A stretch of DNA of 12,930 nucleotides from a virus. Taxonomy: Duplodnaviria; Heunggongvirae; Uroviricota; Caudoviricetes. The position numbers were made by a program, and so were the translations under genes. This document shows, piece after piece, positions 717-12,056 of the stretch (position 1 is its first letter; every line of letters starts with the position of its first letter). A model generated the notes under the pieces. That model searched no databases. It saw only the letters and a program-made list of their open reading frames with translations, and was not told the DNA's origin. The stretch is taken from positions 1 to 12,930 of IMG/VR virus record IMGVR_UViG_2675903661_000019. One strand, written 5' to 3'.

Positions 717-762
717 AGCCAGCGCAATTTTGCGCTTTGCTTTAATCTCAGTGAGTTACCGC
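717..762. repeat. 46-bp direct repeat, copy 2 (overlaps 3' end of the 93-aa ORF)
   Basis: AGCCAGCGCAATTTTGCGCTTTGCTTTAATCTCAGTGAGTTACCGC; a third, shorter copy of the GCGCA-N5-TGCGCT core is at 402-416. Confidence 0.7.
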
Positions 763-1037
763 CGCAACCGTTCCGGCTTCTTCCAGTGGTACGTGATTTT
801 CTCCTTCTCCCGATACATCTCCACGCGGCGACGGTATGTCAGCAACTCAAGGACTCTGGTTCGTATGTTGCGCATATCCACGCCGTTAAGCTCAATACCA
901 TCACGGCGCATCACCTCAGCAACAACACGCGCATAATTTTCGGCTGTCACGCTGTCCGGCTGCGTGGTCTGTTCGTCAGCCTGCTGGCTGATTCCAGAGA
1001 CGCGGCGGATTAATCGCAGTATTTCGGCTTCTGTCAT
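756..1037 (-). CDS. hypothetical protein (93 aa) immediately downstream of large terminase
   Basis: Minus-strand ORF; ATG at 1037 lies 14 nt after the terL stop with GAGG about 9 nt upstream; basic C-terminus; last codons overlap the 46-bp direct repeat copy at 717-762. No family recognised. Confidence 0.45.
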   Translation of the reverse strand: MTEAEILRLIRRVSGISQQADEQTTQPDSVTAENYARVVAEVMRRDGIELNGVDMRNIRTRVLELLTYRRRVEMYREKEKITYHWKKPERLRR

Positions 1038-1050
1038 GCTGCTGACCTCA

Positions 1051-2712
1051 TTACACCCCGCTAAATTCTTCCAGTTTCTGGCGGTGGCTGTCGCTTATAT
1101 CAAAAGCAAAATCCTCATGCTCTGCCTGGAATGTACCAAACGCCATCAGCGCCGCTACGCTCGGGTCTATCTTGTTCGGTGATTTTTTCTTGTTCGGCTT
1201 GATATTGGCGTTCGCGTCACTCTGCATCACGACGTTACTCATCGACCAGGACAACACCGGATCGCCACGATGCACAATCACCCTGCGGTTAACAAAAACT
1301 TCGAACGATTTCGCCGCCGGACTGAATCTGAGGTAGGTTTGCGGGAACGGCTCCACCTCAAAACCAGCCCCCTGTAATTGCGTCCTGAGATGCGTGGCGT
1401 TCCACGTATCAAAGCCCACCAGCCTGATATTAAATTTCTCCGCATCCTGCATGATGTCATCTCTGATCCGGTCGTAATCAATGCAGTCACCTGGCGTTGT
1501 GCGTATCCAGCCCGCTTTAGCCCACTGGCGATAGACAGCGCGGTTTTTATTGGCGGGGTTCTGTAGCTGGAACTCCGGCAGATAATGACGGGAAACCAGC
1601 ATGATATTTTTACCGACCGGAAAGGCATAGCACACGCTGGAAATATCGCTGGTTGATGATAAGTCCAGCCCCGCGTAACACTCCTGCCCGTGTAAATCTT
1701 CCTCCGTGAACGTTCCGGCACACTCAGCCCATGCGCCGTTACCCATCCACGGGGTAGCCCCCTGGCACCAGATATTAAATCGCTTTGTCATCATCTCCAC
1801 CCATTGCGACGGAATACCCCGCGCTTTCTGGATGGTTGAGGCCAGTTTTTCACGATCCACGGAAACATCGATGTTAGGGTTAGCCTTTATCCACATCGCC
1901 GGATCATCAACCTCGTTTTCGTCGTCCAGCTCGTAAATCAGCACAAAAATTGAATCGTTGACCTCTTCGCCGTCCAGGATCTGGCAGCAATAATCATAGT
2001 GCTGTTTACAGGTTGAAACGACGTTACTGCCCGATGTGGTAATGGCAAATAACAGCCCTTCGGGACGTGCGCCCATCCCCAGCTCAAGCGCGGAATAAAC
2101 GCCGTTATCGGGGTGTAGGTGGTATTCGTCCACGATGGAAAGGCTGGGGTTTGTTCCCTCGATGGTTGCCGCTTTTGCTGCCAGCGGCTTTAACAGGCTG
2201 TTGCTTTTCGGGTGCATCACCTTGTGGGCCTGAATATTCACCCGCCTGCGTAACGGTCGGGATAAAAGGCACATCTGACGCGCATCATCAAAAACGATCC
2301 GCGCCTGGTCACGGCTCACCGCTGCGGTGTAAATATCCTGCTGCCCGTTCTCCATAATCAGAAACCAGTTAGCCAGAATCGCGGCGGTCGTGGATTTCGC
2401 ATTTTTGCGCGGCACTTCGATAAAGGCGCTCGTGTATTTGCGCCGTCCGGTGGCCTTAACCTTAAAGCCGAGGATGCACGCAAAGGCGAACTGCTGCCAC
2501 GGCTCCAGCTCAATGGGTCTGCCACGCATCGGCCCTTTTACGTGCGGGCACACCCTGGAAAAGGCAATAAACCGCTCCACAACCTCACGATCGAACGTGT
2601 AAAGGGGGCTTTCAAGGTCCGAAAAGTACCGTTTAACGGCCTGTTTCAGCCGTTTACAGGCCGGAATTTTGCCCGTTTTTACGTCTTCTGCGTACTTATT
2701 CCAGGCGGTCAA
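1051..2712 (-). CDS. terL: terminase large subunit (HK97-like, Terminase_1 type)
   Basis: 553-aa ORF; deviant Walker A-like PRKNAKST and Walker B-like LSIVDEYH near the N-terminus, long C-terminal nuclease-size region; apparent TTG start at 2712 with AGAGGA about 5 nt upstream; overlaps terS 3' end by 17 nt. Confidence 0.85.
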   Translation of the reverse strand: MTAWNKYAEDVKTGKIPACKRLKQAVKRYFSDLESPLYTFDREVVERFIAFSRVCPHVKGPMRGRPIELEPWQQFAFACILGFKVKATGRRKYTSAFIEVPRKNAKSTTAAILANWFLIMENGQQDIYTAAVSRDQARIVFDDARQMCLLSRPLRRRVNIQAHKVMHPKSNSLLKPLAAKAATIEGTNPSLSIVDEYHLHPDNGVYSALELGMGARPEGLLFAITTSGSNVVSTCKQHYDYCCQILDGEEVNDSIFVLIYELDDENEVDDPAMWIKANPNIDVSVDREKLASTIQKARGIPSQWVEMMTKRFNIWCQGATPWMGNGAWAECAGTFTEEDLHGQECYAGLDLSSTSDISSVCYAFPVGKNIMLVSRHYLPEFQLQNPANKNRAVYRQWAKAGWIRTTPGDCIDYDRIRDDIMQDAEKFNIRLVGFDTWNATHLRTQLQGAGFEVEPFPQTYLRFSPAAKSFEVFVNRRVIVHRGDPVLSWSMSNVVMQSDANANIKPNKKKSPNKIDPSVAALMAFGTFQAEHEDFAFDISDSHRQKLEEFSGV

Positions 2713-3052
2713 GCTCGTCCTCTTCTTCTGTTTCCGGTGGATTTTTACGGCGGCTTATCGGGTCAAAACCGAGCAAGGAGGCCATTTTTATCATCACTCT
2801 TTCAGCGTCGGATTTTGCGCTTAATGCGGGGTTTCTGCTCTCGCCGCCCTGACTGTTAACAATGATGAACCCGCGCGCCGCAAGGTCTGCAACGGCTTTC
2901 CGGTAAATGGAGTAGTTGACACAATACAGTTCCAGATTGCTCCAGTCGGCGGGGGTCAGGTCTCCCCGTTCCGCAAGCTGCCGCGATTTTTCCCGCCACT
3001 GCTTCACGGCGATATCATCCAGGTAGGCGGGGGCTTTCGGTGGTCTTGCCAT
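2696..3052 (-). CDS. terS: terminase small subunit (P27-like)
   Basis: 118-aa ORF directly upstream of and overlapping terL; N-terminal MARPPKAP and acidic C-terminal tail typical of P27-family small terminases paired with HNH and HK97-type TerL. Confidence 0.75.
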   Translation of the reverse strand: MARPPKAPAYLDDIAVKQWREKSRQLAERGDLTPADWSNLELYCVNYSIYRKAVADLAARGFIIVNSQGGESRNPALSAKSDAERVMIKMASLLGFDPISRRKNPPETEEEDELDRLE

Positions 3053-3120
3053 GCTTATTTTTTCGCCAGATTATTTTTCAAAAAATTCCCGTGCATAAAA
3101 ATTTGAGGAGGCGTTCGGTT

Positions 3121-3170
3121 CTGGGCGGGGTCGGGTTCGTCCTGAAAACTCCCCCCACCCCGTCCGGCTG
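3121..3170. other. candidate cos site region between HNH and terS
   Basis: GC-rich imperfect dyad GGGCGGGGTCGGG ... CCCCCCACCCCG inside the 289-bp non-coding gap between HNH stop (3342) and terS start (3052), the usual cos position in HNH-dependent cos-type HK97-like modules. Confidence 0.3.
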
Positions 3171-3341
3171 CCTCATCAGCGATTGCGGAAACATTCCATA
3201 ACCTCGCGGTCACGGTCGTTTAATCGCGTCGCTGTGATGCGTTCTGCGCGTCCTGATGCTTTATCTTTATGCCCTGTTTCCTGTGCCTTCCATGCGTCAC
3301 GCTGCCTTATAAGTCCACGGATAAGGCGGTTTTGTTCCCGC

Positions 3342-3782
3342 TCATTCATCAGCGCCATACATCCAGTTATTGCGGTTAGCGGCCCGTTCTTCCTCCTCAC
3401 GGAATCCACCCGCAGCACGCTTGTTTTTTGTGGACGGATCAAGCCATTTCGTTTTCTGGTTATGACACGCCTGGCACAATGGCTGATGATTCCACTCAGG
3501 CCAGAAGAGAACATCATTACCGCCATCGATTGGGATAATGTGATCCACCACCACGGCGGGCGTGTATATTCCTTTTTCCAGGCAATGCGCACATAACGGG
3601 TTTTTACTCAGATACATGGCGCGGTATTTCTCCCACTGCCTCGTATACCCTCGCTCCCTGCTGCTGCCTCTCCGGCTGTCCTGCTGCTGGCGTGCGCTGC
3701 GTCTGTGCTCCTCACACTTGCCGGACTTCACGCGCCTGTTGCAGCCTGGTTCTGTACATCGTCTTAATGGTTGCCACGGCAT
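3342..3782 (-). CDS. HNH endonuclease (packaging-associated)
   Basis: 146-aa ORF with Cys-rich N-terminus (CTEPGC, CEEH) and HNH core VVDHIIPIDGGND...LCQACHNQKT; sits upstream of terS as in cos-type HK97-like packaging modules; start overlaps stop of the upstream connector gene. Confidence 0.85.
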   Translation of the reverse strand: MPWQPLRRCTEPGCNRRVKSGKCEEHRRSARQQQDSRRGSSRERGYTRQWEKYRAMYLSKNPLCAHCLEKGIYTPAVVVDHIIPIDGGNDVLFWPEWNHQPLCQACHNQKTKWLDPSTKNKRAAGGFREEEERAANRNNWMYGADE

Positions 3783-4078
3783 CAGTACACCCCCACATCA
3801 CGGTAAGCCGTCCAGAGTGCGCCAATCGTCATGGGTACGTGTGTTTTTGCGTTATCCGCGACAATCTGGCGATTCTCATACAGGTGAGCGATAAACATCA
3901 TGCAGCCAATCTTTATGGCTGGCGTGAACTCCAGCCCGTCATCAAAGCGCCTGCCTATGTGTATCTGGCACGCCTCAAGCGATGCGGCAATGTATCCGCT
4001 GATTAACTGGTCTTCCTCGTCGCCATCGATGCGGCAATGGAGTTTCACTTCTTCCAGGGTGATAAGTTCTTCTGTCAT
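3782..4078 (-). CDS. head-tail connector protein, gp6-like
   Basis: 98-aa ORF beginning MTEELITLEEVKLHCRIDGDEEDQLISGYIAAS, the characteristic N-terminal signature of gp6-like head-tail connector proteins; ATGA start/stop overlap with the upstream gene. Confidence 0.75.
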   Translation of the reverse strand: MTEELITLEEVKLHCRIDGDEEDQLISGYIAASLEACQIHIGRRFDDGLEFTPAIKIGCMMFIAHLYENRQIVADNAKTHVPMTIGALWTAYRDVGVY

Positions 4079-4413
4079 TTTTCCGCGCCCTCACGACAAA
4101 GAATTTCAAGGCGTGTCCTGGCGGCATCCGGCAGCGGCTGCCCGATGATATTCAGTACACGCCCCGCCAGCGGCCCCGTATTGACCTTTATCCGGCTGGT
4201 GGCGTTGATGTCCTTCCGGTACCGTATCCAGATCCTTACGGTACCAATCGCCAGCTCTGCACCCGATGAAATGGCCTCCTTGCTGCTGACCATGTTCACG
4301 CTTGCCCAGAGTGTGTGACCGTCCTCCCACGTTTCGAGTATTTCGCCCGTCATGGCTCTGGTCTGTTTCAGGGTCTGAATCGTTACCCTGTCACGCAGTC
4401 GCCCTATGTTCAT
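4075..4413 (-). CDS. head closure / head-tail joining protein (gp7 or SPP1 gp16-like)
   Basis: ORF extends to 4455, but the internal ATG at 4413 gives MNIGRLRDRVTIQ..., the typical N-terminus for this family, and overlaps the portal stop as ATGA. IRYRKDI and LEILCREG motifs fit head-closure proteins. Start choice is uncertain. Confidence 0.7.
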   Translation of the reverse strand: MNIGRLRDRVTIQTLKQTRAMTGEILETWEDGHTLWASVNMVSSKEAISSGAELAIGTVRIWIRYRKDINATSRIKVNTGPLAGRVLNIIGQPLPDAARTRLEILCREGAEK

Positions 4414-5621
4414 TCCGGTTTTTCTCCCTCGCTGATTTTTACTTCCTGTTTCCATACCTGGCTGAACTCATCACCACCATCACGCGGAGACAACCCTTCT
4501 CGTTCGCGGGCTTCGTTCGGGCACATAACACCGGATTTGATGCCTCGCTCATAGGTGGCAAAGCGTTCGCCAGGTGTGGCCCGTAACAGGTCCGCGCTGT
4601 CAAACTCCACCTGATACCGGATACCAGGTACAGGCGAGACCACCAGCAAGGCGTTTTTTATCTGCTGCTCAAAGTTCGCCAGCCACGGGCGCATCGTCAT
4701 GGTGAGAAATGCGCGGCTTGCCTCGCTGAAATTGCTGTAGGTGCTGTTGCTGTATTCCTGCAGAAAAATCGGCGAGACGTTGAACATTCGGGCGATGTCT
4801 TCAATGGTGAAGCGACGGGAGGCCAGCCATTCGGCGTCCTGGTTACTCATGCCCAGCTGCTGGTAACTCATGCCCCCTTCAAGGATGGGCGTTTTTCCGG
4901 CGTTTCTGGCCCCTTTGTAGCGTTCCAGTGCGGCTAATGCCTGTTTGCCTTTCACGCCGTCCAGCCATTCGCCTGACGTGATAACCCCTGCCGCCATCAT
5001 GCCATCACGCATCACGCTCGCGCCGTGGCGTTGTTGGGCCAGCCCAAGCCCCAGCGATTCGCGGCAGATGGTTACAGGTGAGCGCCCCATAAAGCCGTCA
5101 TCCGTGGAGTAACGAAGGTGAAGTACTTCCCACGGTAAATAGTTGCGGGTGTTTCCGGTGTAGGCGTCAGTGATGCAATAGCGCCAGTTGTGTTCTCCTG
5201 TCTGCTCCACGTTCACCGACTGCGGCGGGTAAGGATGTAAAGCCGCCGGAAAACCATCACGCCCCCACTGAATCACCGCGTAAGCATTACCGTTTAACAG
5301 GCAGTGGCGGATCATCATTCGCTTAAACTGGTAGGGGGTTTGCCATGCGTTCGGGCGCTCGTTGAGGATATGATCGACCGGATGAGAATCAAGCCACTCG
5401 CGGGCCTCCTTCCCCTTCTCATTGCGTACCAGGTACAGGTAGCATGGCATAGTAGCCACCGCCTCAGAGATGACCGTGACGGCGTTCATGACGGCGGGGA
5501 GTGATTCCGCTGTCCCCGATGATACGTACTCACCCGCCCCCGTGTTCGATGTGCCAGCCAGCGCCATAAATTCATCAAGCGTCATGCTGCGCTGCTCTTT
5601 TTTTCTTCTGAAAGGCCACAT
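4410..5621 (-). CDS. portal protein (HK97 family)
   Basis: 403-aa ORF, size and sequence character of HK97-type portals; ATG at 5621 is 1 nt after the protease stop and preceded by GGGGGTG; lies between protease and connector genes. Confidence 0.85.
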   Translation of the reverse strand: MWPFRRKKEQRSMTLDEFMALAGTSNTGAGEYVSSGTAESLPAVMNAVTVISEAVATMPCYLYLVRNEKGKEAREWLDSHPVDHILNERPNAWQTPYQFKRMMIRHCLLNGNAYAVIQWGRDGFPAALHPYPPQSVNVEQTGEHNWRYCITDAYTGNTRNYLPWEVLHLRYSTDDGFMGRSPVTICRESLGLGLAQQRHGASVMRDGMMAAGVITSGEWLDGVKGKQALAALERYKGARNAGKTPILEGGMSYQQLGMSNQDAEWLASRRFTIEDIARMFNVSPIFLQEYSNSTYSNFSEASRAFLTMTMRPWLANFEQQIKNALLVVSPVPGIRYQVEFDSADLLRATPGERFATYERGIKSGVMCPNEAREREGLSPRDGGDEFSQVWKQEVKISEGEKPE

Positions 5622-5622
5622 A

Positions 5623-6180
5623 TCACACCCCCGCTAAATCCGCCCACCAGCGGCGATTATCCGCACGCGGCATTTTTTCGGGGTGCTGCTCATACAGGGA
5701 ACGGCGGGCCAGCTCCACGCCGGAATCGGGGTAAGCCGGTACGGATGTAACGGTAATTTCGTACAGTTCCGCCACCAGCACGGTGCGCACGCATGGATCT
5801 GTTGTGGTATCCCATACATCCTTACGGGAACGAAAGCCAAAGCTCATGCCGGATATATCACCACGTTTAACCAGTTCGATAACGTCACGCCCTGTGCTGG
5901 TATCCGGTGGGGTAAGTTCAAAGCGTAACCCTGTGTCGTCCTCTTCCAGTTTCAGCGTGCCGGAACGGGTGCGCCCCAGTAACATGCTGTGGTCATGCTC
6001 ATACAGGCCGCGAACGTCATTACCCGCCGCAAGCCACTCAGTAAACGCCCCCCGCTGGAATTTTTCGTAAAACTCCCCCCATAACAGTTCCGAAAGGTTA
6101 TCCCAGCGAACAACGTAGCCTGTAAGCGTGTTGCTGGCGCTGGTGGTGATTTCCGATGACCGGATTTCCATACTCTTCAT
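5623..6180 (-). CDS. prohead maturation protease (HK97 gp4-like)
   Basis: ORF is open to 6294, but the ATG at 6180 has GGGTGA about 8 nt upstream and lies after the capsid stop. Protein carries LYEHDHSMLLGRT and GMSFGF motifs typical of HK97-family prohead proteases. Confidence 0.8.
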   Translation of the reverse strand: MKSMEIRSSEITTSASNTLTGYVVRWDNLSELLWGEFYEKFQRGAFTEWLAAGNDVRGLYEHDHSMLLGRTRSGTLKLEEDDTGLRFELTPPDTSTGRDVIELVKRGDISGMSFGFRSRKDVWDTTTDPCVRTVLVAELYEITVTSVPAYPDSGVELARRSLYEQHPEKMPRADNRRWWADLAGV

Positions 6181-6206
6181 AATTTTTTTCACCCATAAAA
6201 CACTAA

Positions 6207-6224
6207 AGGGGCTTTTTAGCCCCT
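6207..6224 (-). promoter_or_regulatory. GC-rich hairpin between capsid and protease genes (possible attenuator)
   Basis: Minus strand AGGGGC-TAAAAA-GCCCCT followed by an interrupted T-rich tract (TTAGTGTTTTA), in the 55-nt gap between capsid stop and protease start. Confidence 0.4.
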
Positions 6225-6235
6225 TCTGTATGCTG

Positions 6236-7393
6236 TTAATCGTCGTCCTGTGGCAGTTCCAGAATCTTGATCGCGTTCGAATCCACCACGCCACCGCCTA
6301 AATATTTTTGCGTGAAAATTTTGATGAATCCTGGTTCTGTCAGGTTGTCCGGTCTGGTGCGAACACCTGTTTCGTGATCAACGATGTAGTAACCGCGTTT
6401 AAAGTCGCCCAGGGCAATAACGTTATCCGGCATAAACTCCAGATATTCGACCGGAAGGCCCAGCAACGTATCAGGATCACCCGCCTGTAAACGGTCACGC
6501 CAGATGTAATCACCGTTCGCGTTCTTCACCTTCTGGAGTTTTGCCGCCGTCGTGGAGTTAACCACCCAGACCGCGTTTTTGCGGTATTTTTTACGTAATG
6601 CAAATTTCAGGTCGATCAGCGGGTCCGCAGATGTCCACGCCAGAGATTCGGAAGGTTTAATTACCTGCAACGTACCAAAATCACGCTCTTTGTCGTTCTT
6701 CTCTGCACGGGGTACGGATAAAAAGCCTTTTGCTTTTTTGTCACCGTCGCCCACAACCAGATCGCTTTCTTCGGTTTCCGTGAAGGTGTCGCCAATCTCG
6801 CCCGTCAGCCATGAAAGGATGTCCACATCGGAAAAATCCACGATTTCCTGCGTGGTGCGCGGGTACGCATAGACCGGATACAGCTTAATGCTCACCTCGT
6901 TAATCTGCGGGGTGCTGGTCTGTTCGCGTGCCTTACCCTCTTCACCGTGGTTAACGGTCGCACCGCCAGCGGAAACAAGCTGCTTAAACTCGTTGCTGCT
7001 GATTTTCTTCACGGTACAGATGCGGCGCATGGTGGATTCATCCGTCAGCATTCGCATGATTTCGGTGTTCAGTTCGGGGATAACGGTATAACCACCATCA
7101 GCGGGAACGCCTGTACTCAATGCGCGGGTTTCACCTGTCAGAATGTAGTGACGTAGTTCGGCGGGGTCAGTGGTCTGGCTGTTTTTGCCTGGTTTACTGC
7201 GCTCTTCGTCAGCAACGGCCTCAAGGCGGGAGATGTCTTTATCGAGTGATTCAGCTTTAGCGCGTAATTCGTCAAATTTTGCGCCCTCAGCATCGTTAAG
7301 ACTGCGGTTTTCTTTTTCCGCGTTCTCCAGCATGTCGCGCATCTGATTTTTAATGGCGGTTTTCTGCTGGCGTAATTCGATTATTCTCGGCAT
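6236..7393 (-). CDS. major capsid protein (HK97 fold) with N-terminal coiled-coil delta/scaffold-like region
   Basis: 385-aa ORF; charged, coiled-coil-like first ~70 aa (EKENRSLNDAEGAKFDELRAKAESLDKDISRLEAVADEE) followed by a capsid-size body; ATG at 7393. Confidence 0.85.
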   Translation of the reverse strand: MPRIIELRQQKTAIKNQMRDMLENAEKENRSLNDAEGAKFDELRAKAESLDKDISRLEAVADEERSKPGKNSQTTDPAELRHYILTGETRALSTGVPADGGYTVIPELNTEIMRMLTDESTMRRICTVKKISSNEFKQLVSAGGATVNHGEEGKAREQTSTPQINEVSIKLYPVYAYPRTTQEIVDFSDVDILSWLTGEIGDTFTETEESDLVVGDGDKKAKGFLSVPRAEKNDKERDFGTLQVIKPSESLAWTSADPLIDLKFALRKKYRKNAVWVVNSTTAAKLQKVKNANGDYIWRDRLQAGDPDTLLGLPVEYLEFMPDNVIALGDFKRGYYIVDHETGVRTRPDNLTEPGFIKIFTQKYLGGGVVDSNAIKILELPQDDD

Positions 7394-7430
7394 AAAAAAA
7401 GTCCTGGGGTTAAGTAAGGAACTCCAGGAC
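7394..7430 (-). promoter_or_regulatory. hairpin plus U7 tract immediately upstream of the capsid start codon, sequestering the SD
   Basis: Minus strand reads GTCCTGG-(16 nt loop)-CCAGGAC-TTTTTTT-ATG; the only SD-like element (AGGA) lies in the 3' arm of the stem. Confidence 0.5.
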
Positions 7431-7483
7431 GCGGCAAAAACTCAACCGTTTTTCATAAGGGAATCAGCAATCGCACCGATCGT

Positions 7484-7531
7484 TTTCCCGCCTGGTAATG
7501 AATATTGGCGAGCACATTAACAGGCGGGAAA
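7484..7531. promoter_or_regulatory. 11-bp perfect inverted repeat with 26-bp spacer in capsid operon leader
   Basis: TTTCCCGCCTG at 7484-7494 and CAGGCGGGAAA at 7521-7531. Confidence 0.45.
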
Positions 7532-7603
7532 GTGGCCCCAGCGTCCTGGCACCACGGGCGAGAATAATCATGATTCAGTTCGGGTAAAATATGCCGATCC
7601 GCT

Positions 7604-7634
7604 CAGTGAACAACGTGGAACAACCACGAACAAA
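7604..7634. repeat. three helically phased GAACAA repeats upstream of capsid operon
   Basis: GAACAA at 7608, 7618, 7628 (exact 10-bp spacing); 17-bp core GAACAACCACGAACAAA (7618-7634) is identical to 215-231. Confidence 0.6.
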
Positions 7635-7640
7635 TAATTT

Positions 7641-7674
7641 ACAAAAAATAACAAAAAGCCGGATTGCTCCGGCT
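7641..7674 (-). terminator. intrinsic terminator after the 74-aa gene
   Basis: On the minus strand: stem AGCCGGA / TCCGGCT with 4-nt loop, followed by TTTTTGTTATTTTTT; lies 10 nt after the stop at 7685. Confidence 0.75.
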
Positions 7675-7684
7675 GTATGGGTGC

Positions 7685-7909
7685 TCAGTCCCTGATCCCT
7701 TTCAGAAATTCTATCAATGCATCTGTCTGTTCAGGATTTACCGCCAGCATTTCACCGGATAGCGCGCAACGAACAAAACCATGATGATCCTTTTCAATCA
7801 GCGCCCCCGTTTCCAGGAATGCGCGGTAATCAGTGATGTTCATCGTCTCCATGTTGTCAGCATGGTATTTATCACGCTGTTTTAATATCTCATCAAATTT
7901 CGTCGGCAT
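7685..7909 (-). CDS. hypothetical acidic protein (74 aa)
   Basis: ORF is open to 7987, but the ATG at 7909 has GAGGA about 7 nt upstream (MPTKFDEILKQ...). Stop at 7685 is followed by an intrinsic terminator. No family recognised. Confidence 0.5.
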   Translation of the reverse strand: MPTKFDEILKQRDKYHADNMETMNITDYRAFLETGALIEKDHHGFVRCALSGEMLAVNPEQTDALIEFLKGIRD

Positions 7910-8003
7910 TGTTTTTTCCTCTGTTGTGTCTGTTTGTTTCAGATAGTAACTATGCCGGACCGTGACGAAAAGCCAGTAGTGCGCCATACCATTTCAAATG
8001 ACG

Positions 8004-8028
8004 CAAAAAAAGCCGGATTGCTCCGGCT
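8004..8028 (-). terminator. intrinsic terminator after the 82-aa gene (near-identical copy of the 7641-7674 terminator)
   Basis: Same AGCCGGA-GCAA-TCCGGCT hairpin followed by a T7 run on the minus strand; about 24 bp identical to the other copy. Confidence 0.75.
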
Positions 8029-8050
8029 GCGTGGTGTGGTTCTGATATTC

Positions 8051-8299
8051 CTACTCAGCTAATTTGCTCAGCCCCATGTCTGCATAAGTGCGATTTACTG
8101 CATTTCTCAGGTCTGCGTAGTTCTCCGTTGGCGGCTCCGGTGGCCTCTGTGCCTTCCTGGAACATTCCAGCCGTCGCATCGTAACCTGATGCCGTTCCTT
8201 GTCTATCTCCACCAGTTGCATGACTTCACCCCATCGCGCCGACGCCCTCCGGTAAAAGCCTTTTGCCTCGAGTTCCTCCGCTATGCGGTCATGTACCAT
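8051..8299 (-). CDS. hypothetical protein (82 aa)
   Basis: ATG at 8299 is preceded by GAGGGGG, which overlaps the SSB stop codon (TGAGGGGGTGACGATG); ORF ends at 8051 and is followed by an intrinsic terminator. The longer track ORF (to 8419) would overlap SSB by 110 nt. No family recognised. Confidence 0.5.
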   Translation of the reverse strand: MVHDRIAEELEAKGFYRRASARWGEVMQLVEIDKERHQVTMRRLECSRKAQRPPEPPTENYADLRNAVNRTYADMGLSKLAE

Positions 8300-8309
8300 C
8301 GTCACCCCC

Positions 8310-8720
8310 TCAGAACGGAATACCGTCACCGTAAGGGTCATCGCCTCCCGCTGGTGGCTGATTACCCTGTGTGCCTGTGGTTTTGCGTCTGTTCCCGCCA
8401 GGACGTGCCGCACGGGCACTGATTACGCTGTCTGCAATAACCTGATAACCCTGCCGCGTTTCCCCGTTCTGTCCGGTCCACTGGCTGACCTGCATCGTGC
8501 CGGATACGCTGGCAACGTCGCCTTTTTGATGTTTAGCCAGGAAGTCGGCCTGCTTACCAAATGCGATGACCGATAGCCATAACGTAGCCTGCCCATCCTG
8601 CGCCTGACTACATGGCAACGATACCGCCATACGTGCCAGCGTCATTGGTGTGCCCTTGCTGGTCTGTTTTACCTGCGGGTCGTCCACCAGCCGCCCGTAA
8701 GCTGCTATCTGTGCTGTCAT
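8310..8720 (-). CDS. ssb: single-stranded DNA-binding protein (SSB-like)
   Basis: 136-aa ORF; OB-fold-like core alignable by eye to E. coli SSB (conserved Trp in SQWTGQNG matching RKWTDQSG), Gly/Pro-rich linker and C-terminal acidic tip DDPYGDGIPF resembling the SSB DDDIPF tail; ATGA overlap with the upstream gene. Confidence 0.75.
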   Translation of the reverse strand: MTAQIAAYGRLVDDPQVKQTSKGTPMTLARMAVSLPCSQAQDGQATLWLSVIAFGKQADFLAKHQKGDVASVSGTMQVSQWTGQNGETRQGYQVIADSVISARAARPGGNRRKTTGTQGNQPPAGGDDPYGDGIPF

Positions 8721-9031
8721 GATTCCACCTCTCCGGTTTTAACGTTGATGGTTGTTACCTGTTCCGCTTCGGCAATCTCCCGTTCTGTCAGCGTGGCAAA
8801 GTTTGCCGCCGCCGTGGTCATGAATGCGCTTATCAGGTCGGGATGTTCCTTCGCGTATCCTTCCCGCGTGTGGCGGTCTATCGTTCTGATTGCCACCTTT
8901 AAGGTGTGCTCAGTCATGTCTAACGCTTTATATTTTGGCTCTGTTCTGTCTCTGCGAATTTTGGTCATTTGTCGCCCCTGATTCATGTTTTCGGCTGGCA
9001 TGTTTGTTAAGTGATTTTGATGTATGCGCAT
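8717..9031 (-). CDS. hypothetical protein (104 aa)
   Basis: ATG at 9031 preceded by GAGGGGG about 9 nt upstream; first gene downstream of the iteron region; translationally coupled to SSB. No family recognised. Confidence 0.5.
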   Translation of the reverse strand: MRIHQNHLTNMPAENMNQGRQMTKIRRDRTEPKYKALDMTEHTLKVAIRTIDRHTREGYAKEHPDLISAFMTTAAANFATLTEREIAEAEQVTTINVKTGEVES

Positions 9032-9078
9032 TTATTTTCACCCCCTCGTTTAAAAAGTTTTTAGTTGTGCCTCCCCCC

Positions 9079-9302
9079 CCTCTACCCATCTACCCGAATG
9101 CTCATCATGTCAGTAATGGCGCGGCTTTCAGCGGGTAGATAGCTTTTTGGGCTCCTCTACCTGCCGTCTACCCTGCTACCTGAAACTGATAAAATCAGGT
9201 AGAAGAGGTAGAGAGCTTTTATTAGCCTTCTACCTGGCCCTCTACCCACTTATCATGTTGAATAATATGTATTTATTTCATTCAGGTAGATGGGGTAGAG
9301 GG
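9079..9302. repeat. iteron array, candidate origin of replication
   Basis: About 12 copies of CCTCTACCC / GGGTAGAGG-type motifs (core TCTACC / GGTAGA) in both orientations within ~220 bp, interspersed with AT-rich stretches (9250-9283), directly downstream of the primase stop at 9316. Confidence 0.7.
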
Positions 9303-9315
9303 CTTTTACAAAAAA

Positions 9316-11070
9316 TTATAAAAACGCGTCGCAATCGTCTGTTGTAATTGCGTTGGTCTGCGTTACTCCCTTAACTTTTCGCGTAATATATTCATGCCCG
9401 TAAACTTTCGCCGCTGGCTTCATGGCCTTGCTGAACTCAGCCACGTTTAGCGGTTTGCTCCTGCCTGCGTATGCCATAAACGCCAGATAGACGCGGTAAA
9501 GGCTGTTCCTGGTCGTGTACTTCACTGAATCGCCACCGCCCCCCATCATCAGGCCGCGCGCTTCCTCCAGAAAATTCAGGAACTGGCAAAACTCAATAAC
9601 CGGATCCGTCTGTTGCTTTATTGCCAGTGCTTCATCACCGTCACGCTGTTCCAGTAGTAAAGCCCGTGCCTTCTCAGGGTCGGTAAAGTTCGCCAGCAAG
9701 CGGCGGATAATAACGGGGATTTCAGCCGCAATCTTTTCCGGTAGTTCCCTGTCTTTTTCGGCCTCACTGACGATATTGTCGAAACGGAAAATCACGCGAC
9801 GACGTGCCACACCTCCGGCCCGTTCGGTGAATATCATCGGGTTATTGTTGGTCGCCAGCACCACCGCCCTGATTACAGCCGTGAAACGCTTTTCGTATTT
9901 CGGGTTAATTTCCACGGGGTCACCGCCCGTGATTTTCTTGATGCCCGTTCCTTCGCCTGTATATTTCGGCTGGTCAGCCAGGACGATAAGACGACTCCCG
10001 ACAACCTGCGCACGTCCACCAGCATCATCAAGCGATGTCATTTCAGCGCTTACCGTGTTCTGTTTCCCTGCCAGAAGGCTGGCTATGTGTGTGAATGTAC
10101 TTTTACCGCTCCCGCCGTCTCCGGTGGCCTCAATAAACATCTGCCAGTCGTACCGGTTCGCCATAATCATGTACAGCGCGGCACATATACGCATCATCTT
10201 GCGCGGGTCTTTTCCGGCTGCGTGCTCAAGCCATTTATGAAAGTTTGGCGCGTTATCGCGGATGTTCTCCCCTGGTGCTGGTGGCGTGTACTCAATACCG
10301 TTGTGCGTGGTGATCCAGTTCTCCGGCGTGTGCGGGGAAAATTCCCCCGTTTTCAGGTCAAGCGCACCATTGGCAAACGGCAGCAAATCGCCGGACGGCT
10401 CGCCCATTGGTTCGGCAATAACTTTTAACGCTTCCACGGCGTTATTGATTACGCGCTTGCTGAAAGTGGCCCTGTGCTCTGAATAGATCGCCACCATTTC
10501 GCGGCTAAGTTCCATTGTACTGACCGGACACCATACCCCGCCGCGCCATACGTGGACGATTTCACTTTCAGGATGTACGCAAATGCCATCAAAGCGCCCG
10601 GCAAGCAGCTGCGCGCGCTCACTGTCCGCCATCTGCGAAAGTTGTGCCTTTTGCTTTACCGGAAGCTCAATGACCAGACCATCAGAAAGATTCTGGCGCT
10701 CACGGGCCAGATATTCGCGCCAGTTCTCCACCTTCTGAACGTGCATTCCCTCAGGGTAAAAATTTGCATCCTGTACGCCTGCCGCCGCCAGTTTCTGACC
10801 AATCGCCTTGATCATTACTGGCTCAAGATGTCCGGCCCTGAATATGCGTACTGATTTTCTGCCTTCCGGCACAATTTGCAGCTTATCCAGTTCGGATAAC
10901 TGCTGCTCCCCAAGCCACACAGGAGGCTCATTATCTCCGGCCATACGCGCGTCATGTTCCTGCCATTGTTTTGCGTGTGACCAGGCATCACTACCCGCAA
11001 AAATAATGACTTCTGTTTCTTTGTGTTTTATGCCGCGTGACTGCTGTTTTACGTTCGGTGCCAGTTTCAT
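9316..11070 (-). CDS. primase/helicase, P4-alpha / D5-like (satellite Pri-Rep type)
   Basis: 584-aa ORF with central P-loop NTPase Walker A GDGGSGKST and Walker B-like LIVLAD, N-terminal primase-like region; ATGA overlap with the upstream 99-aa gene; iteron-rich AT-containing region begins right at its stop. Confidence 0.8.
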   Translation of the reverse strand: MKLAPNVKQQSRGIKHKETEVIIFAGSDAWSHAKQWQEHDARMAGDNEPPVWLGEQQLSELDKLQIVPEGRKSVRIFRAGHLEPVMIKAIGQKLAAAGVQDANFYPEGMHVQKVENWREYLARERQNLSDGLVIELPVKQKAQLSQMADSERAQLLAGRFDGICVHPESEIVHVWRGGVWCPVSTMELSREMVAIYSEHRATFSKRVINNAVEALKVIAEPMGEPSGDLLPFANGALDLKTGEFSPHTPENWITTHNGIEYTPPAPGENIRDNAPNFHKWLEHAAGKDPRKMMRICAALYMIMANRYDWQMFIEATGDGGSGKSTFTHIASLLAGKQNTVSAEMTSLDDAGGRAQVVGSRLIVLADQPKYTGEGTGIKKITGGDPVEINPKYEKRFTAVIRAVVLATNNNPMIFTERAGGVARRRVIFRFDNIVSEAEKDRELPEKIAAEIPVIIRRLLANFTDPEKARALLLEQRDGDEALAIKQQTDPVIEFCQFLNFLEEARGLMMGGGGDSVKYTTRNSLYRVYLAFMAYAGRSKPLNVAEFSKAMKPAAKVYGHEYITRKVKGVTQTNAITTDDCDAFL

Positions 11071-11599: not shown

Positions 11600-12056
11600 G
11601 ACTCACCCCCTGGCGAATACGGGCGACAAAAATCAGATGTGTGTGCGGCAGCTGGGCGCGTGCTTCGCCTTCTGTTGCTGCCGTGACGGTAAAGAGTGAT
11701 CTTTGTTTTTCCTGGCACTGCATAAAGCGCCAGACAAAGTAAGGGCGTGCGGATACAGCCATGTGAAAGGCTCCCAAAGTGAAATTAAGGAGTCTCGCTA
11801 CTACGCTGCTAAACGGGGTGGCGAGACGTAACAGGGTTAGCAGACTGGCACTTTGGGAACCAGCGAGCGCAAAGGCTCCCCCGTTACGCCCCGCCATAAT
11901 GCGGGTATGGGTAGGCTTACGGACACAAAAAAACCGCATATCGGAATGTAAGCGGCTGTCCGCCAAAGTATTCAGGCTGCTAAACCCGGTCGCCATGTGG
12001 GCGACGGGGGAAGCATACAGCCCCGTTATAATTTTTTGCAAGCGGTTTTTACGCAT
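11592..12056 (-). CDS. candidate ORF (154 aa, very basic), doubtful; may instead be structured leader RNA
   Basis: ATG at 12056 with CAGGGG 8 nt upstream; 3' end overlaps the next start as CATGCATAA. Its last ~50 codons and the downstream junction are duplicated in the preceding segment (12049-12200). Composition (Ala/Arg/Leu/Ser-rich, few acidic residues) is atypical. Confidence 0.25.
   Translation of the reverse strand: MRKNRLQKIITGLYASPVAHMATGFSSLNTLADSRLHSDMRFFCVRKPTHTRIMAGRNGGAFALAGSQSASLLTLLRLATPFSSVVARLLNFTLGAFHMAVSARPYFVWRFMQCQEKQRSLFTVTAATEGEARAQLPHTHLIFVARIRQGVSHA

Follow-up and report, generated by a model that had tools for sequence, protein, structure and literature searches.

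Gene content and junctions of the packaging operon

The window, by which we mean the whole 12,930-nt stretch of DNA analysed here, carries between positions 756 and 7393 a block of long open reading frames (ORFs) that all lie on the minus strand (Table 1). In the direction of transcription, these encode the capsid protein, protease, portal, Hc1, Ad1, HNH endonuclease, and a 57-aa ORF, followed by a 123-nt element, terS, terL, and a 93-aa ORF. The capsid, prohead protease, portal, adaptor, connector, HNH, TerS, and TerL genes all gave strong Pfam and PHROGs matches (8/8), and the same searches bear out the order that an earlier note had read from the sequence: capsid, protease, portal, head-closure, gp6-like protein, HNH, a gap, terS, and terL. 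The note's placement of terL as the last gene was mistaken, since the 93-aa ORF comes 13 nt later; this ORF was found in only 16 of 129 loci and is therefore probably accessory rather than core. For the protease, the position of the Pfam match, the length of RefSeq homologues (558-573 nt), and full-length 99.5% identity to the EcCIEDL933 protein all indicate a start at ATG 6180 and not at GTG 6294.

Table 1. Features of the packaging operon and its flanks, in order of transcription (window coordinates).
Feature	Position	Strand	Evidence or remarks
Untranslated leader, probably with the operon promoter	7394..7656	-	263 nt between terminator-like hairpin 7674..7657 and capsid ATG; promoter role inferred
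Major capsid protein, 385 aa, first operon gene	6236..7393	-	PF05065 Phage_capsid, E=1.7e-61; phrog_10, 1.2e-88
GC-rich hairpin and short T-run	6205..6226	-	Terminator-like; 9 nt past capsid stop, inside the 55-nt capsid-protease spacer
Prohead serine protease, 185 aa	5623..6180	-	PF04586 Peptidase_S78, 5.8e-48; phrog_80
Portal, 403 aa	4410..5621	-	PF04860 Phage_portal, 2.5e-90; phrog_12
Head closure Hc1, 112 aa	4075..4413	-	PF05521 Phage_HCP, 1e-22; phrog_25
gp6-like head-tail adaptor Ad1, 98 aa	3782..4078	-	PF05135, 3.2e-12; phrog_40, 2.8e-35
HNH endonuclease, 146 aa	3342..3782	-	PF01844, 9.4e-8; phrog_144, 4.4e-43
Small ORF, 57 aa (60 aa if start 3358)	3176..3349	-	Read from sequence; overlaps HNH stop by 8 nt
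Conserved non-coding element, probable cos and TerS recognition region	3053..3175 (123 nt)	-	Conserved blocks and position
Small terminase TerS, P27/Terminase_4, 118 aa	2696..3052	-	PF05119, 3.4e-24; phrog_83
Large terminase TerL, 553 aa, ATPase and nuclease domains	1051..2712	-	PF03354 and PF20441; phrog_9, 5.9e-179
93-aa ORF, function unassigned	756..1037	-	phrog_1561, 1.1e-55, full length; 13 nt past terL
Palindromic hairpin just past the 93-aa ORF, probable operon end	721..736	not assigned	Terminator-like match

The genes share one strand, as the earlier note had it, but not all of them overlap: a 55-nt spacer separates capsid from protease and a single nucleotide separates protease from portal, while the remaining junctions through terS-terL overlap by 1-17 nt. 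The portal and Hc1 genes meet in an ATGA overlap that is kept in 100 of 107 loci, Hc1 and Ad1 likewise share an ATGA, and Ad1 and HNH overlap by 1 nt. The terL gene starts with TTG and overlaps terS by 17 nt, a configuration present in 67/129 loci (ATG with a 4-nt overlap in 32/129).

The hairpin in the capsid-protease spacer has a minimum free energy of -17.6 kcal/mol (z=-2.89), and 139 of 155 loci have a hairpin in this spacer; as the stem hardly varies, covariation gives only a weak signal. A putative terminator is annotated at the corresponding position after the HK97 capsid gene, so a hairpin here is not specific to the rearranged order. Upstream of the capsid gene, an alignment of about 37 diverse loci revealed at the 5' end of the leader a partly conserved block, TTTG...TAAAT..T..GT followed by GTTT...TG.T; a sigma-70 consensus scan found no promoter match on the minus strand of the window. 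The hairpin at the far end of the operon belongs to a direct repeat some 45 nt long.

Identity of the element

We assign this region, with a probability of about 0.9, to a phage satellite, as the operon for capsid formation and DNA packaging in a capsid-forming phage-inducible chromosomal island (cf-PICI) of EcCIEDL933 type, with its arrangement conserved. The gene order fits that published for Proteobacterial cf-PICIs, whose conserved organisation the 2022 cf-PICI paper defines as running from capsid to terL; the unusual order of the window is real and strongly conserved, but already in the literature. Pairwise identities place the proteins in the cf-PICI clade (capsid 99.0% and TerL 98.0% identical to EcCIEDL933, against at most 40% for the best true-phage capsid). 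Tail and lysis families were without a match among those long ORFs of the window, itself part of an island, that were submitted to Pfam, and without a PHROGs match among the nine ORFs of 756-7393, and the full islands L001 and EcCIEDL933 have no tail or lysis genes either.

A D5_N/DUF5906 primase is encoded at 11070..9316. Elements of this kind are about 10-18 kb in size; the 12.9-kb window is cut at the integrase end of the island, and relatives measure about 14.5-15.4 kb, related IMG/VR contigs being mostly 14-18 kb. The integrase and alpA genes, expected past 12930, occur in the closest full-length relatives, so that membership of a full element rests on those relatives. In experiments by others, EcCIEDL933 was shown to be helper-induced and to have cohesive ends; every core packaging gene was mutated and found necessary for transfer of the satellite and not for transfer of the helper phage. 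It assembles a small capsid of its own from 240 subunits and fills it with its own cos DNA alone; tails are all that it takes from the helper. Given 95% identity to EcCIEDL933, the island in the window would likewise be induced by a helper, form its own small capsids, package its own DNA, and need only tails from the helper.

Conservation of the gene order

The synteny comparison that the earlier note had recommended shows the collinear, same-strand order in 127 of the 129 loci having all six large markers and in all 62 Pasteurellaceae-type loci, or 189/191 related loci in total, which is not a matter of chance. Order and tight junctions alike are maintained in more than 20 genera, in keeping with the note's view that the arrangement is stable and not a recent inversion. 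Only the connector pair has proved movable: in Symbiopectobacterium copies, the Hc1-like gene has been relocated to after HNH, and the pair is also the variable cassette described in the literature.

The window lacks the canonical HK97 synteny (terS-terL-portal-protease-capsid-Ad1-Hc1, then tail genes). All 80 of the nearest phage-type (YeP1-like) viral contigs and 14 deposited phages have the order terS-terL-portal-protease-capsid. Capsid identity to records of the phage collection jumps from at least 59% (satellite-like) to at most 40% (phages), and the four records at or above 59%, which comprise two satellite-sized genomes, one 3.8-kb fragment, and one chimeric 106-kb assembly, all place capsid before portal. 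The order is a fixed trait of the Gammaproteobacterial cf-PICI clade that its nearest phage relatives do not share. The earlier note took the HK97-like order as canonical, which describes these nearest phages but is not universal, since the tailed prophage CP-933N differs. Its suggestion that the order is diagnostic of a satellite lineage likewise holds for the full arrangement, which tracks the lineage, and not for capsid-before-portal alone, which CP-933N also has; only the full arrangement marks the cf-PICI lineage.

The HNH-terS interval

The interval 3341..3053 had been described as non-coding, which is correct only for its last 123 nt (3175..3053), the remainder being occupied by the 57-aa ORF. 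This ORF has no family match in Pfam, is annotated as a hypothetical gene in RefSeq relatives and EcCIEDL933, and may be the published 'hypothetical gene 1792'. It can be recognised in 70 of 129 loci, matched by a bimodal distribution of HNH-terS distances.

Within the non-coding element, the blocks GGGTGGGGG and CCTCAAATTTTTACGCACGG..TTTTTTTGAAAAT are at least 80% conserved over about 60 loci, although the proteins of these loci share only 63-70% identity, and the element carries a 13-nt imperfect inverted repeat. The deposited linear record LR881103 has its ends within this element, though some 65 nt of the conserved block are missing from it and the ends may have arisen in assembly. In HK97, the HNH gene is followed by 319 nt, cos (the genome end), 49 nt, and terS, matching the position of the element between HNH and terS, and HNH genes adjoining cos and terminase genes are a general feature of phages (PMC3592412). 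From its conservation and position, the 123-nt element is probably cos. Because the TerS sequences of the window and HK97 show no detectable similarity, homology gives no basis for transferring the recognition model of HK97. In a decayed Shigella copy, a 91-nt deletion has taken out this element together with the start of terS.

On a circular genome, the window shares with HK97 the position of HNH directly upstream of terS-terL and next to cos, or in the window to the probable cos. The note's placing of HNH-terS-terL last is partly an effect of prophage coordinates, since HNH-cos-terS-terL is the HK97 layout once the DNA is circular.

Origin and possible function of the gene order

The most fitting interpretation of the gene order is an old rearrangement that defines the lineage and is held by tight gene packing. 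A canonical order hidden by wrong gene calls or a misread strand has a negligible probability; it is ruled out by strong, full-length Pfam and PHROG matches on the minus strand, with which the RefSeq annotation of relatives independently agrees, and the protease, portal, and connector calls that the earlier note had named as a possible error are upheld by these searches. It is also highly improbable that the region is a decayed and scrambled remnant of an HK97-like prophage, as in the older view of 'cryptic prophage CP-933C', which was once described as an unusual, highly degraded prophage consisting mainly of P4 remnants. The element does lack tail and lysis genes, but its nine genes are all intact with full-length family matches, the arrangement is kept in 189/191 loci from many genera, the prototype EcCIEDL933 is functional in published transfer experiments, and truly decayed copies, such as that from Shigella, look different.

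For the rearrangement itself, we give even odds to a frozen accident, in which the order arose once in an ancestral satellite module and the overlaps then made reshuffling deleterious, with no effect on expression. Near-total conservation together with the 1-17 nt overlaps at most junctions would be expected from such a history, as would the mobility of the connector pair alone, the differing orders of three independently arisen cf-PICI groups (2022 cf-PICI paper), and yet another order in CP-933N. However, two of the three cf-PICI groups have independently put morphogenesis genes before hnh-terS-terL, hinting at selection on the layout. An adaptive order, as the earlier note envisaged, is possible though rather doubtful: with the capsid gene first and a hairpin behind it that acts as partial terminator or stabiliser, expression could descend in a gradient that matches need, from about 235 capsid subunits through the protease and 12 copies each of portal, Hc1, and Ad1 to catalytic HNH and terminase. 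The reported 240 copies of the major capsid protein per capsid, the hairpin straight after the capsid stop, junction geometry that would couple translation of the genes downstream of capsid, and the frequent TTG start of terL are consistent with this gradient, and the order would run from high to low expected copy number. Yet the hairpin came with the capsid gene, as HK97 has one too, and is missing from about 10% of loci; the TTG start is not universal; phages of canonical order attain the same stoichiometry; and one Firmicute cf-PICI group starts its operon with portal, protease, and capsid in that sequence (2022 cf-PICI paper).

The rearranged packaging genes would form a single transcription unit driven by a promoter ahead of the capsid gene, with transcription passing through cos into terS-terL as in phage late operons on circular or concatemeric DNA. 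The short overlaps could couple translation of the low-copy proteins, and the 123-nt element may serve TerS, TerL, and HNH as their recognition and cutting site on the concatemer.

Comparison with known systems

The closest known system is EcCIEDL933 (CP-933C, O-island 51) of E. coli O157:H7 EDL933, the prototype cf-PICI, whose DNA is 95.4% identical over 754-8971 of the window and which has the same genes in the same order, starting at the SSB and PerC genes and continuing past capsid to terL and the 93-aa ORF. Protein identities are 99.0% for capsid, 99.5% for protease, 98.8% for portal, 96.4% for Hc1, 99.0% for Ad1, 94.7% for the small ORF, 99.2% for TerS, and 98.0% for TerL, with HNH (88.4%) and the 93-aa ORF (88%) most diverged. 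The two islands differ in their replication modules, with a DUF927 protein in EcCIEDL933 and the D5_N/DUF5906 primase in the window; the nearest E. coli relatives are integrated at tqsA and not at the site beside roxA and phoQ. Other Gammaproteobacterial cf-PICIs, some of them deposited as phages (vB_KppS-Ant, LR881103; Pasteurella Pmp8, OR544139), are 15-17 kb long and share the module order and the conserved HNH-terS element, with capsids 59-75% identical to that of the window; many are without the small ORF, and Pmp8-type elements often have an extra gene upstream of capsid.

Among tailed phages, HK97-like members (HK97, YeP1, VW-6S, ST64B, SfIV) share the PF05065 capsid, S78 protease, PF04860 portal, Ad1, Hc1, and two-domain TerL, and HK97 and its relatives also have the hairpin after the capsid gene and the circular HNH-cos-terS-terL layout, but their genes are ordered terS-terL-portal-protease-capsid-Ad1-Hc1 before the tail genes and their capsids are at most 40% identical to that of the window. 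The CP-933N-type lambdoid prophage of EDL933 (L171, 19209-27565), which is tailed, resembles the window in having capsid before portal and HNH-terS-terL adjacent, but its order is HNH-terS-terL-[protease-capsid fusion]-portal-Ad1-Hc1-tail, with the protease N-terminal to the capsid, terminase first, and Ad1 before Hc1, and the relationship is distant (portal 25%, TerL 23%, with capsids that can barely be aligned). Firmicute cf-PICIs have the satellite lifestyle in common with the window but other gene orders and an independent origin (2022 cf-PICI paper). Classical PICIs (EcCICFT073, SaPIs) are satellites without capsid, portal, or terL genes that remodel the helper capsid instead, and the left half of the Proteobacterial cf-PICI (int, alpA, rep) is common to the classical E. 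coli PICIs (2022 cf-PICI paper).

Gene content of the packaging operon

All long ORFs within 756-7393 lie on the minus strand, and the eight genes named from capsid to terL are assigned unambiguously by Pfam and PHROGs (see table), including the protease, portal and connectors, whose miscalling could have concealed a canonical order; the calls hold, and the gene order proposed from the sequence in an earlier note is borne out by them. Several details of that note change. The large terminase gene (terL) had been placed last in the operon and is instead followed by a 93-aa ORF (orf93). The gap between the HNH and small terminase (terS) genes had been called non-coding, which is true of only 123 nt (3175..3053), the remainder being a 57-aa ORF that overlaps the HNH stop. 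Overlapping stops and starts describe most junctions, but not that of capsid and protease, where a 55-nt spacer carries a GC-rich hairpin together with a short T-run; the other operon junctions in the window are overlaps of 1-17 nt or, in one case, a 1-nt spacer. A longer protease ORF with a GTG start was rejected as an artefact on reading the junction, the actual start being ATG 6180. A sigma-70 promoter scan of the window gave no match on the operon's coding strand.

Features of the window, with gene spacing across homologous loci
Feature	Position	Strand	Assignment or remark	Spacing to next gene across loci
Major capsid protein	7393..6236	-	Pfam, PHROGs	median +45
S78 prohead protease	6180..5623	-	Pfam, PHROGs	+1 or +2
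Portal	5621..4410	-	Pfam, PHROGs	-4 in 100/107 loci
Head-closure protein Hc1	4413..4075	-	Pfam, PHROGs	-4 or -8
gp6-like adaptor Ad1	4078..3782	-	Pfam, PHROGs	-1
HNH endonuclease	3782..3342	-	Pfam, PHROGs	
57-aa ORF	3349..3176	-	annotated by RefSeq in relatives	
P27-family small terminase (terS)	3052..2696	-	Pfam, PHROGs	-17 or -4
Large terminase (terL)	2712..1051	-	Pfam, PHROGs	
93-aa ORF (orf93)	1037..756	-	phrog_1561	
C4 antisense RNA	11814-11901	-	Rfam RF01695, 71.1 bits, E=1.5e-12	
DUF4222 ORF, 99 aa	11067-11366	-	RgdR homologue	
Replication module	8972-11070		EDL933 counterpart, L173 4038-6540	
PerC-family transcriptional activator	8051-8419	-	PF06069, 2.5e-34	
Terminator-like hairpins	7657-7674, 8011-8028	-	identical; AGCCGGAGCAATCCGGCT then T-runs	
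Small ORF between the hairpins	7987..7685		probably 74 aa from ATG 7909	
Direct repeat, ~45 nt	585-633, 717-766		GGTAACT[C/T]ACTGAGATTAAAGCAAAGCGCAAAATTGCGCTGGCT; copies 133 nt apart	

The window element is an EcCIEDL933-type satellite

Islands of 15 kb in E. coli match the window at 92-97% identity and carry an integrase, a small HTH regulator, a primase and the same packaging module; no tail or lysis genes are found in them. For direct comparison we located EcCIEDL933, the prototype capsid-forming phage-inducible chromosomal island (cf-PICI), as cryptic prophage CP-933C in the EDL933 chromosome; OR845787 had been tried as a stand-in and was rejected when it proved to be a different cf-PICI. 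EcCIEDL933 has the same module architecture as the window, small ORF and 93-aa ORF included, with 95.4% DNA identity over window positions 754-8971 and 88-99% identity among the module proteins. Judged by these figures, the window element is a close variant of this experimentally characterised prototype. Only the replication module differs: the window encodes a 584-aa primase-helicase (D5_N/DUF5906/Pox_D5) and EDL933 a 710-aa DUF927 protein, with RgdR and SSB genes still flanking the module in both, a pattern indicating that the left half of the island undergoes modular exchange.

Several features outside the packaging operon deserve description. At the island's regulatory end, a C4 antisense RNA lies where relatives have Icd-like cell-division-inhibitor genes annotated beside it, an indication that a cf-PICI may use antisense immunity of the P1/P4 type. 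The DUF4222 ORF shares 77% identity with an EcCIEDL933 protein matching RgdR (ECs1581), for which activation of the LEE type III secretion system has been published. Its RGD motif is intact at residues 20-22, and it has A10 and R45, the pair of changes described in the commensal ED1a variant (of these, D10A is also described in UPEC CFT073). A PerC-family gene, common to EcCIEDL933, adjoins the SSB gene 5' of the packaging operon, so that the element carries two host-relevant regulators. In the interval from the PerC gene to the capsid operon, two identical terminator-like hairpins flank a small ORF with no family match; together they look like an insulated moron-type cassette. Just after orf93, a direct repeat containing a palindromic hairpin may represent either a terminator or a duplicated end of the island, and this region is also repeated in EcCIEDL933.

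The gene order is conserved among satellites

To compare synteny we fetched three sets of 80 loci each and placed genes by tblastn: one genome per species at 63-98% capsid identity, from more than 20 genera (including Shigella, Proteus, Xenorhabdus, Photorhabdus, Serratia, Erwinia, Gilliamella and Kosakonia), with about 220 more distant genome hits lying beyond this set; IMG/VR loci; and Pasteurellaceae-type loci. Among loci having all six large markers, the order is collinear and on one strand in 127 of 129, and in all 62 of the Pasteurellaceae type, together 189 of 191 satellite loci. Junction spacing is likewise kept across loci (see table). The arrangement is old and stable, and the claim of a stable rearrangement, not a recent inversion, is upheld.

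Both exceptions are duplicate copies in Symbiopectobacterium sp. RP (L075 7407-8532 and L076 12913-14038), the sole order variants found: portal leads directly to Ad1, and HNH is followed by a divergent Hc1-like gene (27% identity over its full length) at the position of the window's small ORF, which fits the published cassette-like variability of connector genes. An extra gene immediately 5' of the capsid gene is present in 25 of 80 Pasteurellaceae-type loci (L254-L333) and absent from the window and EcCIEDL933; it is annotated 'tail terminator' in Pasteurella Pmp8 (L003 14914-15321), and if that annotation is right, some cf-PICIs have one further head-tail joining component.

Phages present a different picture. 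Portal precedes capsid in the 11 true phages with comparable coordinates for both genes and, by annotation, in YeP1, VW-6S and HK97; YeP1-like viral contigs, mostly 25-60 kb, have the canonical order in 80 of 80. Capsid identity in the phage collection shows a gap between a group at 59-66% and the rest at 40% or below. The four records in the 59-66% group all place capsid before portal: two genomes are of satellite size, one record is a fragment of 3.8 kb, and the fourth is a chimeric 106-kb assembly, PQ569648. Although deposited as a 'phage' with the satellite order, this last was rejected as a counterexample, being sparsely annotated and apparently chimeric. Titled 'Klebsiella phage, complete genome' (PQ569648.1, 106.5 kb; L086, L087), it holds P2-like baseplate genes and then a circularly permuted cf-PICI extending past the record end (the 3' part of terL, integrase, DUF927, capsid, protease, portal).

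The tailed lambdoid EDL933 prophage CP-933N, only distantly related to the window module, reads HNH, terS, terL, S78-protease/capsid fusion (645 aa), small ORF, portal (833 aa, with a long C-terminal extension), Ad1, Hc1 and tail genes (L171 19209-27565). The portal-protease-capsid order is therefore not universal among E. coli phages, and capsid before portal is not by itself exclusive to satellites. The proposal that the order is diagnostic of the satellite lineage thus holds for the full arrangement (189/191 against 0/80 YeP1-like contigs), which on synteny is a mark of the satellite clade, but not for capsid before portal alone.

The terminase end and a probable cos element

The HNH-terS-terL genes keep their internal order, as the earlier note stated, but their position at the end partly reflects prophage coordinates: HK97 has its HNH gene 319 nt short of the right genome end and the start of terS 49 nt in from the left, giving HNH-cos-terS-terL on circular or concatemeric DNA, as in the window. 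In phages generally, HNH genes adjoin cos and terminase genes (PMC3592412). The terminase end of the module is canonical.

The 123-nt element between the 57-aa ORF and terS is conserved far above its flanking genes and contains a GGGTGGGGG box and a complementary C-rich stretch as well as a CCTCAAATTTTTACGCACGG..TTTTTTTGAAAAT block. It is probably the cos region, with the cut site predicted only as within it. LR881103 (vB_KppS-Ant, a satellite deposited as a linear phage) starts 22 nt before terS and has its right end in the conserved GGGTGGGGG..TTTTCAGGAC box; these record ends are suggestive only, as the record is short of the conserved element by about 65 nt. Among IMG/VR contigs, none broke within the HNH-terS gap, so their ends are no guide to cos. 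The HK97 TerS-binding model was not transferred to the window: the two TerS proteins have no detectable similarity, and a T-tract resemblance is analogy only. A Shigella flexneri SFBU1023 copy (L006, ~14263-14269; 96-98% identical) lacks window positions 3033-3123, a deletion that takes out the cos-like element and the terS start codon; this copy, a picture of real decay, is probably immobilised.

Gene order and expression

The meaning of the gene order for expression is not taken up in the cf-PICI papers we consulted. A frozen historical arrangement is the reading we favor, at a probability of roughly 0.5. That the order tunes expression, as the earlier note proposed, is plausible but less probable, and a more specific functional design is slightly less probable again: with the capsid gene first and the conserved hairpin behind it acting as partial terminator or transcript stabiliser, one promoter would set up graded copy numbers (capsid >> protease > portal = Hc1 = Ad1 > HNH, TerS, TerL) without helper-style antitermination or multiple signals. 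If true, this would be a compact expression logic specific to tail-less satellites.

A hairpin follows the capsid gene in 139 of 155 loci, with a few alternative stems at its position, and folds better than shuffled sequences (z=-2.89). Covariation is weak, with one double-change pair only; the stem is nearly invariant, and loop lengths disturb the alignment. The putative hairpin is thus argued for by presence and position, and covariation gives it no support. In satellites every low-copy gene comes after it, an arrangement that would be compatible with a simple polarity gradient. HK97 also has a putative terminator annotated immediately after its capsid gene, so the hairpin accompanies the capsid gene and did not arise from the rearrangement. 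Farther along the operon, terL starts with TTG in 67 of 129 loci.

Comparison with known cf-PICIs

The layout, ending in hnh-terS-terL, is already known: it was described in the 2022 cf-PICI paper, which says that the packaging modules of phages and PICIs 'have different genetic organisations', and a 2025 preprint uses the same ordered gene list as a search criterion. Because of this, and because the prototype is 95% identical, nothing about the element's identity is new. Our additions are quantitative: synteny counts, the definition of a probable cos element, and the observation that capsid before portal alone is not satellite-specific. As a signature of cf-PICIs, the layout helps to separate them from prophage remnants in genome annotation, where the EcCIEDL933 family was long listed as "cryptic prophage" CP-933C. 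These satellites make their own capsids, take only tails and transfer between species. In EcCIEDL933, mutation of each module gene abolished satellite transfer, except that of the hypothetical gene '1792', which severely reduced it, and the helper phage's transfer did not change; the satellite's capsid is built from 240 subunits and lacks a decoration protein, and packaged cf-PICI DNA has cohesive ends.
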